A stretch of DNA of 51,295 nucleotides from Candidatus Sumerlaeia bacterium (GCA_013360565.1 JABWBI010000002.1:1-51295), one strand, 5' to 3'; numbered from the stretch's first letter, positions 3,260-8,020 are shown. Notes: generated by a model from the sequence alone, not told the origin. A program made the numbers and translations.

Positions 3260-3823
3260 TCAGCGCATCAGCGAATCGACAAGATCCTCTTCTCTCTCAG
3301 CCACGGGGGGCCAAGCGCCCTCGATCTCCAGGAGCCTCCGCTTCAACGGGAGCCCCCCGCCGAATCCGCCGAGTCTACCGTCTTGCCTGAGCACCCGGTG
3401 GCAGGGCACCACGAGGGGAAACGGGTTGGCACTCATCGCGCCGCCCACCGCTCGCGCCGCATACGGGTCACCAGCCCGGACCGCAACCCACCAGTAGGAC
3501 CGCGTCTGGCCCCACGGAATCTGGCGGGTGGTGTCCCACACACGCCGCTGGAAGGGTGTCGCCTCGCTCATGTCGAGTGGCCAGCGCGAATAGTCCTGAG
3601 GTCTGCCCCGAAGAGCGGCATCCAAGACGTCGAGCCACGGGTCCACGGCGGTCTGGTCACGCCGGGCCGAACGGCGATTGTTTCGGGCCAGATGGGCAGC
3701 TGTCAACGCTTCTGTCGGATGCGGGAGAACAATCTGCGAAACCCCATCCGGACCGGCGGCCAAGCCGATCCAACCCAATGGCGTCTCCAGGGTGCCCCAG
3801 GAGTGGACGGAAGGAAGTCTCAC
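3260..3823 (-). CDS. ogt: Methylated-DNA--protein-cysteine methyltransferase (Ogt/MGMT family)
   Basis: The active-site motif PCHRV sits in NPFPLVVPCHRVLRQDGRLGGFGGG, and the N-terminal TPLGWIGL-type domain is present. I chose the in-frame GTG at 3823 rather than the track start at 4027. That start would overlap the response regulator by about 200 nt. GTG 3823..3821 overlaps the upstream stop TGA 3822..3820 (GTGA). Confidence 0.85.
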   Translation of the reverse strand: MRLPSVHSWGTLETPLGWIGLAAGPDGVSQIVLPHPTEALTAAHLARNNRRSARRDQTAVDPWLDVLDAALRGRPQDYSRWPLDMSEATPFQRRVWDTTRQIPWGQTRSYWWVAVRAGDPYAARAVGGAMSANPFPLVVPCHRVLRQDGRLGGFGGGLPLKRRLLEIEGAWPPVAEREEDLVDSLMR

Positions 3824-4230
3824 GCTGCGGGCATCTCCTGGTGTCCTTGCGCCTTGGCCAGGAGTTGGGAGATCTTCTCGACCGTCGAAACCGGATCGAA
3901 GGGCTTCGAGATGAAATCGTCGAGCCCTGCAGTCAGCGCCTTCTCTTGATCGCCGATCAGCGCATGGGCCGACATGGCCACGATGGCCAGATTCCGGGTC
4001 TTGGGCATCGCCCGGAGGCGGCGGCACGCCTCCCAGCCATCGACCACCGGCATGTCCAGGTCGAGCAGGACCAGGTCCGGCGGCTCGCAGGTGGCCATCG
4101 CGATCGCTTCCGCTCCATCGCGGGCGATGAGCACGGTGTGTCCGAGATGCGTCAGGAGGCTCTCGAGCACGAAGACGATGTCGCGGTTGTCGTCGACGAC
4201 CAGGATGCGCGCCGGCCGGGCGGGGGTCAT
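3820..4230 (-). CDS. Single-domain response regulator (CheY-like receiver, no output domain)
   Basis: ILVVDDNRDIVFVLESLL...PDLVLLDLDMPVVDGWEACRRLR...AIVAMSAH...KPF carries the acidic pocket, the phospho-acceptor Asp context (LLDLDMP) and the conserved Lys (SKPF). Its ATG overlaps the kinase stop (ATGA at 4227..4230). Confidence 0.9.
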   Translation of the reverse strand: MTPARPARILVVDDNRDIVFVLESLLTHLGHTVLIARDGAEAIAMATCEPPDLVLLDLDMPVVDGWEACRRLRAMPKTRNLAIVAMSAHALIGDQEKALTAGLDDFISKPFDPVSTVEKISQLLAKAQGHQEMPAA

Positions 4231-6206
4231 GGGGCCGGATGATGCGGGAGAGTGAGGCAGAATGTCGAGCCAGAAGCGTCGGTCTCCTCCAGCGTCAGCT
4301 CGCCTCCCACGAGGCGCGCCAGCGACCGCGCGATGCTCAGCCGCAACCCCGTGTCATGCTCCGGGTTGGAGCCGAGAAACGGCTCGAACACACTGTCGAC
4401 CATGGCGGGATCGAAACCCCGGCCGTTGTCCCGGATCGTGATCCTGAGCGACGCTGTCGTCCCCTCCTGCCGGCGGTCGCCCCTGATGCGAACCTCCCGA
4501 GCCTCCGCCCAGAGCGCGAGGTGCTCGAGGAGATGCTGCAGGATGAACCTGACCTTGACCGGGTCGGATGACCAGCGCACGGCCTCCGGGTCCAGATCGA
4601 CTTGAACATCGAATCGCTGATCCTGGAGGCACGCCGCGACGCGGCCCGCTGCATCCCGGATGGTCCCGGCGACGTCAAACTCACCCCAGAGCATGTCCAC
4701 CTCACCGCCCTCGAGGCGCGAGTAATTGAGAATCCGGTCGAAGGCGAGGTGCAGTGTGTGTCCACAGCGCAGGATGGTCTGGAGCGCCTCACGCTGGCGT
4801 TCGTTCACCTCGCCGAGGACACCACCTCCCAGGAGGTCGGCGCAGCCGATGACGGCACTGAGCGGCGTGCGCAGCTGATGTCCCAGCGAGGCGAGGAACC
4901 GGCTCTTGAATCGCTGGCTCTGTTCGAGCTCCCCGTGGGCCTTCTCGAGCTCCAGGGCCCGGTCCGCCGCCAGCTCGCGCTCCCGGCTCACCTGGGCAAA
5001 GAGCTGAGCGTTGCGCAGCGTCGTCGACACACTCACCAGCAGAGAGCTGATCACGTTCGCCTGCCGGCGGATCGCTGCGCTCGGCTCATGACCGCGCATC
5101 TCCAGCGTGCCGATCACCCGCTGCTGGGCGATGATCGGAATCGAGATCAGCGACATGCCAGCGCGCTCAGGATCGGCCACCGCGCCGGTCGCGAAGGTGG
5201 CCATCTCATCCCGCTGGATGGGCCCCGACTCGGGGAGAGTGTACCGGGTCCAGCCGTCCCCGCTGACATTTTCCATCACCAGCACGAGGACCCGGGCGCG
5301 GGTGAACTGCCGGGCGACTTCGAGAAGCCGCTCGGCGATCTCATCCATGTCCAGTGTCGCTCCGACCATCAGAGCCAGTTCCCCGGCCTGCTTGCTCTCG
5401 GCCAGCGTCCGGCTGATCTCCTCGCCCATCTCGTCGAAGCAGGCGGCCAGGCTTCCGAACTCATCCGGGCGGTCGAGGCCAATGGGCCCGAAGTTCCCGC
5501 GCGAGAACTCCTCGACGCCCGCCGTCAGCGCGTCGATGGGGACCGTGATCGACCGGCCCAGCCGCACGGCCAGGAGGATCGCCAGAGCGATCACGGAGAA
5601 GTGAACCACCCGGTTGACCGTGTAGAGTGTCTGGAGGTCCTCCGTCGCATCCACGATGTCGAGCCTCAACTCGCTGAGGCCCCGCGCGGCCAGCTCGTTC
5701 AGGGTTCGACTGAAGGAGGCACTCTCCTCCCAGAGATCCACCACGGCGATGTCAGCCTCGGCGGAGGTGAGGTGGACGCCCCCGTCGTCATTCTCGATCA
5801 GCGAGAGCATCCGGTCCGTCGCCGCCGTCACCTCGTCGTAGGACTGCTCGGCCGAGAGGAGCACCGAGCGCATCGCGGCGGTCTCGACCTGCGAGCGGAG
5901 GTCGGCCAGACTCTCGCGGACTTCGCGGCGAAGCGGCTCGAGGGCCGCGTGGACATCTCCCATCCGCTCCCCGTGGAGCCGGCGTCCGATGATGACCGCC
6001 GCCTCGGTCATGTGCTGATAGGCGTTCAGGAACTCTTCGATCAGCAGCGTGTACTCCAGCTGAAGCGCCTCGATGCGCTCGCGCTCCTCGTCGTCGATCC
6101 AGTCCGAGAGTGCCCGGCTCGCGAAGAAGAGAATCAGGATCACGGCGAAGTGGAGAATGATCCGGGCGCGGACCGAACGGCGGGCGGCTTGCAGCAGTCT
6201 GACCAT
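4227..6206 (-). CDS. Membrane sensor histidine kinase (2 TM helices, helical extracytoplasmic region, HAMP, GAF-like, HisKA, HATPase_c)
   Basis: The H-box is FLASLGHQLRTPLSAVIG. G1 is DNGRGF and the F-box is FEPF. The start was moved to the in-frame ATG at 6206 (MVRLLQAARRSVRARIILHFAVILILFF), 2 nt after the patatin stop (TGA 6211..6209). The track start at 6347 would overlap the upstream gene. Confidence 0.9.
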   Translation of the reverse strand: MVRLLQAARRSVRARIILHFAVILILFFASRALSDWIDDEERERIEALQLEYTLLIEEFLNAYQHMTEAAVIIGRRLHGERMGDVHAALEPLRREVRESLADLRSQVETAAMRSVLLSAEQSYDEVTAATDRMLSLIENDDGGVHLTSAEADIAVVDLWEESASFSRTLNELAARGLSELRLDIVDATEDLQTLYTVNRVVHFSVIALAILLAVRLGRSITVPIDALTAGVEEFSRGNFGPIGLDRPDEFGSLAACFDEMGEEISRTLAESKQAGELALMVGATLDMDEIAERLLEVARQFTRARVLVLVMENVSGDGWTRYTLPESGPIQRDEMATFATGAVADPERAGMSLISIPIIAQQRVIGTLEMRGHEPSAAIRRQANVISSLLVSVSTTLRNAQLFAQVSRERELAADRALELEKAHGELEQSQRFKSRFLASLGHQLRTPLSAVIGCADLLGGGVLGEVNERQREALQTILRCGHTLHLAFDRILNYSRLEGGEVDMLWGEFDVAGTIRDAAGRVAACLQDQRFDVQVDLDPEAVRWSSDPVKVRFILQHLLEHLALWAEAREVRIRGDRRQEGTTASLRITIRDNGRGFDPAMVDSVFEPFLGSNPEHDTGLRLSIARSLARLVGGELTLEETDASGSTFCLTLPHHPAP

Positions 6207-6208
6207 GT

Positions 6209-7312
6209 TCAGAGCACCTTGATGACGTCGGCTGGGCAGTTGTTCTCGCAGGCGTGGTCCTGCTGGCAGCGGTCCGTGTTCGTGACCACGAGCTCCGCGC
6301 GCGGGCCGTTCATGCGGAAGATGTCGTAGGGGCAGGCGAGCACACACAGGCCGCAGCCGATGCAGCGGTCGAGATCGAGGACGAACTTCGCCTTGCTGAA
6401 GTGCAGCGGTGCGGGGTGGCGGCCCGGCGCCCGCTCGTGGAGCACCCGCATGATGGCGGGATGCGTGCGGAGCATCTCGATCGCCAGCCGGTGCCCACGC
6501 TCGATGAGACGGTCGATGCCCGAGAAGTCCAGCAGATCATGGTCGCTGACATCGATCTCCAGCAGCACCAGCGGCGTCCGGCAGAAGTGGAGGGAGCTCT
6601 CGATCTTGTCGCGAATCGCGATCGCGCTCTGCCGCATGACGGAGGAGATGATCTGCCGGAATCCCCCTCCCAGCCCACGTGCCGCCGCCGAGTGCGCCCC
6701 CGCCGCGGCCCCCCGGAAACCCAGGGTGATGGCGATGATGAGCGAGGCCCCGCGCAGCTGGGCGAGCGAGATGGGAAGATTGTCGCCCACGCCACCGTCC
6801 ACGTAGGTCTCGCCCTTGATCTGGCGGGGCGGGAAGATGCCCGGCATCGAGCAGGAGGAGACCACGGCCTCGTGCACGGGGATGTCGTCCAAGCCGGGCA
6901 GGCCCCAGAAGACGTTTGCCGAAGACCGGAGATTCACGGCGTTGACAAAGAGCGGTTTGGGCAGCTTGCCGAAGTCGTCGACGGGCAGGATCCGCTCGAC
7001 GAAGTCGTGGTAGTTGCGGATCGAGAACAGTCCCCCGCAGTCCTCCCCCCCGAGTCCGAGTGCGTTTTGAACTGTCTGGCGCACGAACCCCCACTTGGAC
7101 GGGATGAAGTCCCGGCGCCGGATCGAGCAGGCCACCTCGGCCATCTCCTCCACGCTGAGTCCCGAAGCCGCCGCGGCGGCGATCAGCGAACCCATGGACG
7201 TGCCGATGTACTCGTCGATCTCGATATCCAGGTCGCGGAGCGCGCGCAGCACTCCGATGTGGGCCATGCCCTTCAGCCCGCCTCCGGAGAGGACAGCAAT
7301 CGTCTTGGACAC
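6209..7312 (-). CDS. Patatin-like phospholipase fused to a C-terminal 4Fe-4S ferredoxin-type domain
   Basis: Patatin hallmarks are present: oxyanion GGGLKG, nucleophile elbow GTSMG and catalytic Asp in DGGVGDNLP. The last ~55 aa read CIGCGLCVLACPYDIF...CQQDHACENNCPADV, a CxxCxxCxxxCP motif plus a distal CP, as in single-cluster ferredoxins. Confidence 0.85.
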   Translation of the reverse strand: MSKTIAVLSGGGLKGMAHIGVLRALRDLDIEIDEYIGTSMGSLIAAAAASGLSVEEMAEVACSIRRRDFIPSKWGFVRQTVQNALGLGGEDCGGLFSIRNYHDFVERILPVDDFGKLPKPLFVNAVNLRSSANVFWGLPGLDDIPVHEAVVSSCSMPGIFPPRQIKGETYVDGGVGDNLPISLAQLRGASLIIAITLGFRGAAAGAHSAAARGLGGGFRQIISSVMRQSAIAIRDKIESSLHFCRTPLVLLEIDVSDHDLLDFSGIDRLIERGHRLAIEMLRTHPAIMRVLHERAPGRHPAPLHFSKAKFVLDLDRCIGCGLCVLACPYDIFRMNGPRAELVVTNTDRCQQDHACENNCPADVIKVL

Positions 7313-7468
7313 ACAGAACCTCGGATGGGCGCCTGGGGCGCCGCGGTCTCAGGTCAGGGTGGAGCAAGTCCTCGCCACCCGCAAGCCATCCCATCGACAT
7401 CCGGCCCGCCATTGTTGAGGAGTCGCAAGGGAGTTGACAGCTCGGCGGCGGACGGCGAATCTCCGGCC

Positions 7469-8020
7469 ATGAGGCTGACACCCGTGTGCCCCCTGCCGCT
7501 TCTGCTCTCCTTTGCGATGTTGGTCTCCGCCGTGGGATGCTCTGTGACTCCCCGTCACGAACGGCGCCACGACATCCCGACGCGTCTCCTCGACGGCTAT
7601 GACGCCTTGGTCATCCTCCCGCCCCAGGCCAGCGAGGGACTCCGTGTCTCCGTGCCTGAGGGTTCACTCGCCATGCTCGAGACAGAGATCCGGCGAGAGA
7701 TCAGTGGCTTCGCCCTCAACCGGCTCGCTCCGCCCCCCCTTCAGTCCAACGCCTCTTTCCGCGGCCGCTCGGCGGAGCTCCACGTGAACGTTGTCCGCTG
7801 CGACGAGGTCTCCGTCGAGAGCCGATTCTCCCGCACCGCCACTCGGATCGAGATCGACGTCGCGGTCCAGTTCGTCGACTCCGAGACCTACGAGCCGCTC
7901 GCGGACTGGGTGAATCTCGGCGAGGCGGCCGGACCGGCGACCGGGCGGAGCGTCGCCGATGCCCTCCGGGCGGCCGCCCACCAAGTGGCGCTGCACATCG
8001 TGCGCGACAGACGCGGCTGA
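7469..8020 (+). CDS. Hypothetical lipoprotein
   Basis: This is an in-frame ATG at 7469 inside track ORF 6254..8020, whose 5' part is antisense to the patatin gene. The N-terminus MRLTPVCPLPLLLSFAMLVSAVGC is a signal peptide plus a lipobox-like motif. G/C third-position bias is strong. I recognise no family. Confidence 0.6.
   Translation: MRLTPVCPLPLLLSFAMLVSAVGCSVTPRHERRHDIPTRLLDGYDALVILPPQASEGLRVSVPEGSLAMLETEIRREISGFALNRLAPPPLQSNASFRGRSAELHVNVVRCDEVSVESRFSRTATRIEIDVAVQFVDSETYEPLADWVNLGEAAGPATGRSVADALRAAAHQVALHIVRDRRG

Follow-up and report, generated by a model that had tools for sequence, protein, structure and literature searches.

The DNA examined in this study, referred to here as the window, is a stretch of 51,295 nucleotides from a Candidatus Sumerlaeia bacterium (GCA_013360565.1, JABWBI010000002.1:1-51295). 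Its minus strand carries an open reading frame (ORF) that encodes a patatin domain and a C-terminal ferredoxin domain in one protein (patatin-Fd), followed by genes for a histidine kinase, a CheY-like response regulator and an Ogt/MGMT-type methyltransferase. The patatin-Fd gene and its parts are as follows:

6209..7312, minus strand: whole patatin-ferredoxin gene, 367 amino acids plus stop, GTG start
6437..7303, minus strand: patatin-fold catalytic domain, residues 4-292 (Pfam PF01734, AF2 and Foldseek)
7268..7285, minus strand: GGGLKG, predicted oxyanion-hole loop, residues 10-15 (from the motif; G10-G12 at least 90% conserved in 116 relatives)
7190..7204, minus strand: GTSMG, predicted nucleophile elbow, residues 37-41, with Ser39 (G37, S39 and G41 invariant in 116 sequences)
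6782..6799, minus strand: DGGVGD, residues 172-177, with Asp172, the predicted catalytic Asp of a Ser-Asp dyad (D172 and G173 invariant in 116 relatives)
6392..6436, minus strand: flexible linker, residues 293-307 (AF2 pLDDT below 50 at residues 295-306)
6212..6391, minus strand: ferredoxin domain, residues 308-367 (Fer4, Fer4_7, Fer4_9 and Fer4_10 above cut-offs)
6329..6364, minus strand: motif 1, C317-IG-C320-GL-C323-VLA-C327-P328 (CxxCxxCxxxCP; C317, C320 and C323 invariant in 83 C-terminal segments)
6233..6268, minus strand: motif 2, C349-QQ-D352-HA-C355-ENN-C359-P360 (CxxDxxCxxxCP; C359-P360 invariant)

The GTG start codon has a GAGG sequence 8 nt upstream, and the frame stays open for only 12 further codons above it. 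The protein has no signal peptide and should therefore be cytoplasmic. The AF2 model is confident (mean pLDDT 83.6, pTM 0.82) apart from two clade-specific insertions and the linker at residues 295-306, and both the length and the sequence of the linker differ from clade to clade. Profile searches with PF01734 and the Fer4 families, which the first-pass annotation of this DNA had called for, placed both domains above their cut-offs in a single ORF (Patatin E=5.5e-34; Fer4 PF00037 E=2.3e-12, matching two stretches near the C-terminus), and the C-terminal peptide quoted in that annotation matches the translation letter for letter.

The same annotation had raised the possibility that the C-terminal part is a separate gene created by a sequencing error, and the integrity of the fusion was examined in independent assemblies. 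Logan contigs from four different sludge or activated-sludge metagenome studies read through positions 6100-7450 without a gap and with no more than one substitution, and the fused ORF is found on independent contigs of relatives at 99, 79, 69, 67 and 66% identity. Another genome of the same GTDB family carries it too (MBN1475795.1, named 'patatin-like phospholipase family protein [Candidatus Sumerlaeota bacterium]' at NCBI). An artefact in which two genes were merged by frameshift or misassembly is refuted both by the indel-free sequence from the four studies and by the presence of the same fusion in Sumerlaeota, Planctomycetota and Gemmatimonadota, at about 85 loci in all, and its probability is negligible. 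Patatin-Fd is confirmed as a genuine fusion of a patatin domain with a C-terminal ferredoxin domain. The organism that carries it inhabits activated sludge and bioreactors, where oxygen fluctuates, a point in favour of the regulatory explanation given below.

Counting this architecture across genomes, another check proposed at the outset, yielded the approximately 85 loci in three phyla. In the protein databases, 1156 relatives at E<=0.001 were found among 5.8 billion proteins, and the best 120 of them are nearly all 340-420 aa long, with Patatin and Fer4-clan domains. Among GTDB species genomes, 549 of 600 pattern matches encode relatives; the ferredoxin motif is present in 79 of the best 80 of these, which fall into Planctomycetota (seven Cys plus Asp) and Gemmatimonadota (four Cys). 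Within the organism's own phylum, the gene occurs in 2 of 75 genomes and is confined to its own family. A profile search with the linker and ferredoxin region against 1.84 billion representatives gave 293 matches at E<=1e-10, a figure that includes gene fragments and polyferredoxins and indicates only the rough size of the family; about 50 of the best 150 matches span the patatin/ferredoxin junction. Relatives of 276 aa that lack the ferredoxin domain are encoded by Poribacteria and Abyssubacteria and are about 43% identical.

A tree of the patatin domain separates ferredoxin-less, query, Planctomycetota and Gemmatimonadota clades, each with at least 99% SH-aLRT support, and their branching order is a polytomy. 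It is possible that a single ancient fusion was followed by loss of the second cluster site (site II, below) and of the ferredoxin domain. The Planctomycetota and Gemmatimonadota proteins (NCBI 'patatin-like phospholipase family protein', JGI 'RssA/PreA') share architecture, length (340-400 aa), catalytic motifs and ferredoxin position with the query and are 30-36% identical to it. The Planctomycetota branch also has the seven Cys plus Asp of the query, but motif 1 ends in CP in the query and in CE or CA in Planctomycetota, while Gemmatimonadota members have four Cys. Unlike the query, neither branch has a histidine kinase-response regulator operon, and the query clade differs from the other branches in insertions of its own, one of which bears a conserved cysteine, Cys92. 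At one locus, L074, the ferredoxin motif is missing entirely and the reading frame continues into unrelated sequence, which may reflect a frameshift.

Annotation pipelines recognise both halves of the fusion, as the JGI string 'RssA / PreA subunit' indicates. The first-pass annotation knew of no described case, and the literature searches likewise found no paper on a patatin-ferredoxin fusion. Patatin-Fd is an uncharacterised variant of the patatin-like lipases within a sizeable family, and the query copy is set apart by a predicted 7Fe-type two-site module and by its kinase-regulator operon.

The N-terminal part is a complete patatin domain with the GGGLKG, GTSMG and DGGVGD motifs, as had been claimed. 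The PF01734 match covers residues 7-184 at 118.5 bits (gathering cut-off 27.7), and the motif set of patatin-like phospholipases is present: the GGGxxG oxyanion loop, the GxSxG nucleophile and the DG[GA] catalytic Asp. AF2 pLDDT is mostly above 90 across the patatin fold. The best solved relative by sequence is PlpD (5fya/5fqu, E=1.2e-19), and PlpD 5fya is also the best fold match in Foldseek (TM 0.83, normalised by target), followed among solved relatives by CBASS CapV/CapE, plant patatin, VipD and ExoU. Patatin-Fd is best explained as a predicted acyl hydrolase or phospholipase of the patatin type, with Ser39 and Asp172 as its dyad.

The PlpD passenger domain of Pseudomonas aeruginosa resembles the query in its Ser-Asp dyad architecture but is 24% identical to it and has no Fe-S domain; PlpD itself is secreted, as a type Vd autotransporter that also contains a POTRA domain and a beta-barrel. 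The query protein falls below the NCBIfam cut-offs of the RssA equivalog (NF007623, 76.4 bits against 272) and of the VpdC equivalog.

CapV and CapE offer a different comparison, being patatin-fold lipases that are held off by an appended regulatory input until a signal arrives. It is conceivable that patatin-Fd is likewise an anti-phage or toxin-type effector, with the ferredoxin domain as the sensor of the trigger, given that CapV and CapE rank directly after PlpD by fold and that PADLOC gives weak phospholipase-effector matches (45.6 bits). However, the PADLOC matches are to generic phospholipases only, the CBASS cGAMP-activated phospholipase model (NF041079) scores 44.1 bits against a cut-off of 200, and neither a cyclase nor any other defence gene is present in the vicinity, where the genes are of housekeeping or signalling types. 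CapV and CapE also differ in being cyclic-nucleotide-activated and filament-forming (according to PDB entry titles) and in having no Fe-S domain. Given the sub-threshold CBASS score and the absence of a defence-gene context, the defence reading was rejected and is considered very improbable.

A further feature of the catalytic domain is an insertion of about eight residues in the query clade (within residues 72-100) that bears a G-x-x-C-G-G sequence including Cys92 (7037-7039). This cysteine is kept in all six query-clade members and is missing from the other clades, and the insertion has reduced AF2 pLDDT (75-79). Cys92 might provide a further thiol close to the Fe-S module or the active site.

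The ferredoxin domain contains seven Cys residues (317, 320, 323, 327, 349, 355 and 359) in two motifs separated by 20 residues, as in the aligned domains of MvhB and FwdF. The register is that of a clostridial-type 2x[4Fe-4S] domain in which Asp replaces the second Cys of motif 2. The two complete CxxCxxCxxxCP motifs of a canonical eight-Cys domain are therefore not present: motif 1 is complete and motif 2 reads CxxDxxCxxxCP, which together, at dicluster spacing, constitute the sequence pattern of a 7Fe/Asp-variant dicluster ferredoxin. The initial count of four ligands plus two extra Cys thus has to be corrected to seven Cys, three of them extra, plus Asp352. Dicluster models exceed their Pfam gathering cut-offs at residues 311-365 (Fer4_7, 34.6 bits against 27; Fer4_10, 29.3 against 25.5; Fer4_9, 27.8 against 27), while the single-cluster models do not (Fer4_13, 19.9 against 24.5; Fer4_15, 15 against 22.4). 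The domain aligns end to end with the solved 2x[4Fe-4S] domains of MvhB and FwdF, and HMMER aligns motif 2 to the natural C-D-L-D-G-A-C-x3-CP of the polyferredoxin 9sfi_O. In the AF2 model, the secondary structure follows the canonical beta-alpha-beta-beta-alpha-beta order, and by fold the closest small ferredoxin is the [Fe3S4] form of P. furiosus ferredoxin, 1siz. These results speak for two sites.

The first-pass annotation had read the domain as a single-cluster ferredoxin of the Thermotoga/Pyrococcus type, in which one [4Fe-4S] cluster is accompanied by extra Cys forming a disulfide. This reading draws some support from T. maritima ferredoxin (1rof/1vjw), which aligns to residues 310-366 at E=2.3e-4, from the P. 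furiosus ferredoxin 1siz as a fold match, and from the Gemmatimonadota, which make up most of the wider family and really are of the four-Cys, single-cluster type. However, C327, C349 and C355 are present jointly with D352 in all 32 Planctomycetota-type loci and in all six query-clade proteins, and identity between these two clades is only about 33%. All four residues are thus strictly co-conserved in 38 proteins at the exact CxxCxxCxxxCP register, and in Gemmatimonadota the three Cys positions are occupied by A/G/S, S/T and Y/F, with only the four Cys of the first site kept. That the three extra Cys are kept or lost together matches the expectation for a cluster site, whereas a disulfide would need only two of them, which favours two sites. 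For the query, the single-cluster candidate is not supported, given its sub-threshold Fer4_13 and Fer4_15 scores and the three further Cys in ligand register, and it is regarded as improbable; as a description of the Gemmatimonadota branch, the single-cluster reading holds. The ferredoxin domain of patatin-Fd probably has two cluster sites, and the predicted cluster types are, with similar confidence, a stable [4Fe-4S] cluster and either a [3Fe-4S] or an Asp-ligated [4Fe-4S] cluster. The pattern of conserved residues shows an intact predicted Fe-S binding domain under purifying selection.

Two published cases provide a frame for the second site: D. africanus Fd III combines a stable [4Fe-4S] with a reactive [3Fe-4S] cluster (PMC13111528), and the NO sensor NsrR holds a [4Fe-4S] cluster on three Cys and one Asp (PMC5411485). 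Fd III is one of the ferredoxins in which an Asp ligand position accompanies a labile 3Fe/4Fe site; to judge by titles in the reference list of PMC4070099, studies of its Asp14Cys variant and of PsaC C14D/C51D are further examples. D. africanus Fd III, P. furiosus Fd and the PsaC C51D mutant resemble the query in having CxxDxxC in place of CxxCxxC beside a normal [4Fe-4S] site, and their Asp site holds a [3Fe-4S] or a labile [4Fe-4S] cluster. By motif position, D352 would correspond to PsaC Cys51. These ferredoxins are free-standing electron carriers, whereas the ferredoxin domain of the query is fused to a hydrolase and has its Asp in the C-terminal motif; in Fd III and P. furiosus Fd, the Asp is in the N-terminal motif.

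The D352 column was also inspected in the four-Cys branch. Most Gemmatimonadota proteins that lack all three site-II Cys keep the Asp within an S-x-x-D-x-x-Y/F sequence (for example, at loci L013 and L022), which suggests that the conserved Asp of that branch has a role beyond cluster ligation and may count against a ligand role for Asp352. One Gemmatimonadota locus (L064:123-1361) has an intermediate five-Cys pattern, in which the first motif reads C..C..C...AG and the second S..D..C...CP.

Downstream of patatin-Fd, the following genes lie on the same strand:

4227..6206, minus strand: histidine kinase, 659 amino acids, with a transmembrane segment, a helical sensor region, a second transmembrane segment, HAMP, a weak GAF match, HisKA and HATPase (Pfam)
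3820..4230, minus strand: REC-only CheY-like response regulator, 136 amino acids (Pfam Response_reg, E=3.7e-26)
3260..3823, minus strand: Ogt/MGMT-type methyltransferase (Pfam DNA_binding_1, E=3e-32)

The ATG of the kinase begins 2 nt past the patatin-Fd stop, the regulator start overlaps the kinase stop (ATGA), and the Ogt start overlaps the regulator stop (GTGA). Four distinct query-clade loci extend as far as the kinase, and all of them repeat the order patatin-Fd, kinase, regulator at 65-70% identity, with gaps of at most 4 nt; a fifth query-clade contig ends inside the kinase. The position of the regulator is conserved at loci L081-L083 and that of Ogt at L081 and L082. Outside the query clade, where they adjoin patatin-Fd, no full-length homologues of the kinase were found; the other database matches cover 34-47% of it, corresponding to the kinase core. 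In this lineage only, patatin-Fd heads a tightly coupled operon with the kinase, the regulator and Ogt. Metatranscriptome contigs of related strains, at low depth, cover the Ogt-regulator-kinase junctions and the patatin-Fd/kinase junction, which lends weak support to expression and co-transcription of the operon.

This context is not general to the family. Clustering of the ORFs flanking the 85 loci, together with tblastn searches using the kinase, the regulator, a neighbouring predicted lipoprotein and Ogt, revealed no neighbour common to the three clades and none common to the Planctomycetota and Gemmatimonadota genes, and none of the Planctomycetota or Gemmatimonadota loci examined has a kinase-regulator pair beside patatin-Fd.

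Two neighbouring genes are worth recording in their own right. A divergent gene at 7469-8020 on the plus strand encodes the predicted lipoprotein (183 aa), which has a signal peptide ending in a lipobox-like AVGC and no match in Pfam; homologues at 35-36% identity occupy the same divergent position at loci L083, L084 and L085, and are absent from it at L081 and L082. A class-V PLP enzyme (Aminotran_5) is encoded upstream of patatin-Fd, on the opposite strand and 0.1-2.2 kb away, at 41 of the 48 Gemmatimonadota loci (for example, L093:4696-5901, minus strand). The resemblance of this enzyme to SufS/cysteine desulfurases is weak (102 bits; cut-off 475), and its proximity could reflect either plain synteny or a link to Fe-S or sulfur supply.

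There are several potential explanations for the presence of an Fe-S module on a lipase. In the explanation preferred here, a cytoplasmic patatin lipase and a ferredoxin domain of the bacterial type would be joined by a flexible linker of about 15 residues, and the ferredoxin domain would offer two sites for clusters. The first of them, site I (Cys317, Cys320, Cys323 and Cys359), would bind a conventional [4Fe-4S] cluster, and site II (Cys327, Cys349 and Cys355, with Asp352 at the usual place of the fourth Cys) would bind a [3Fe-4S] cluster or an Asp-ligated, site-differentiated [4Fe-4S] cluster. The redox, oxygen, NO or iron state of the clusters may alter the packing of the Fe-S module on the lipase, and this altered packing may in turn set lipase activity or membrane engagement, with the lipase possibly wired into the kinase/CheY-like two-component pathway as an input or a target. 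As a whole, this explanation is the best available, and we give it nearly an even chance. That the Fe-S module is regulatory is put forward tentatively, and gating of the lipase by redox or iron status is a plausible hypothesis, as is the redox or O2 gating suggested in the first-pass annotation. It is also important to note that any function common to the whole family cannot depend on site II, because the Gemmatimonadota branch lacks it. In that branch, the largest, site II is dispensable and the Asp is kept all the same, and both points speak against a simple sensor.

Alternatively, the Fe-S domain may be purely structural, or a maturation checkpoint in which a cap or lid folds only with its clusters, leaving the lipase insensitive to redox state. 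Fe-S clusters with a structural role occur widely in non-redox enzymes, the neighbourhood of the gene holds no conserved redox partner, and the ferredoxin-less relatives of 276 aa indicate that the catalytic domain can stand alone. On the other hand, Asp-for-Cys sites, going by the examples named above, are typical of labile, reactive clusters rather than inert ones, and the AF2 model places a long, disordered linker between the two domains. A structural role is considered unlikely, although it accounts for a substantial minority of our expectation.

A further alternative is that the ferredoxin module serves as a wire carrying electrons from a donor to a partner enzyme, or takes part in redox-linked chemistry on the acyl substrate. 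Dicluster spacing is the classic arrangement of a conduit, the best sequence matches are electron-transfer polyferredoxins, HgcB and RnfB, and the tendency of two clusters in series to occur in electron conduits counts against a simple sensor. However, redox chemistry is not known for the patatin fold, none of the clades has a conserved oxidoreductase beside the gene, and one branch of the family has only a single cluster, so that an electron-transfer role is given little probability.

Within the preferred, regulatory explanation, the position of patatin-Fd as the first gene of an operon translationally coupled with a histidine kinase and a CheY-like regulator suggests that the lipase may be wired into their two-component pathway, as an input or a target. 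E. coli rssA-rssB is a loose precedent for a patatin gene paired with a REC protein: RssA (YchK), which is the best NCBIfam patatin match, is a cytoplasmic patatin-like protein encoded immediately upstream of the REC regulator gene rssB and shares 33% identity with the query across 191 aa. Unlike the query, RssA has no ferredoxin domain and the rssA-rssB operon has no kinase. The lack of a partner gene common to the three clades, together with the occurrence of the link in 2 of 75 genomes of the phylum, counts against the preferred explanation. Coupling of patatin-Fd to the adjacent kinase is a possibility that we rate as doubtful. The more specific proposal, that patatin-Fd is a redox- or iron-sensing input to the kinase and regulator, or their regulated output, so that the Fe-S state would give rise to a membrane change or to a lysophospholipid or free fatty acid signal that drives two-component signalling, is rather improbable on present evidence.

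Protein cofactors, cyclic nucleotides or secretion are known to activate patatin-type lipases; no iron-sulfur-controlled lipase was found in the literature searched. Members of the patatin-Fd family occur in at least three phyla, all of them common in soil and wastewater. Should the clusters gate activity, they would provide a direct link from cellular redox or iron status to membrane-lipid turnover. The family also offers a natural series in which the contribution of each cluster can be compared, from ferredoxin-less relatives through the four-Cys, single-site proteins of Gemmatimonadota to the two-site proteins with seven Cys plus Asp in Planctomycetota and Sumerlaeota, and the Sumerlaeota version adds a defined operon in which two-component coupling can be probed. 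If true, the passage of Fe-S state into a lipid signal and then into two-component output would represent a signalling logic that has not been described for bacteria.
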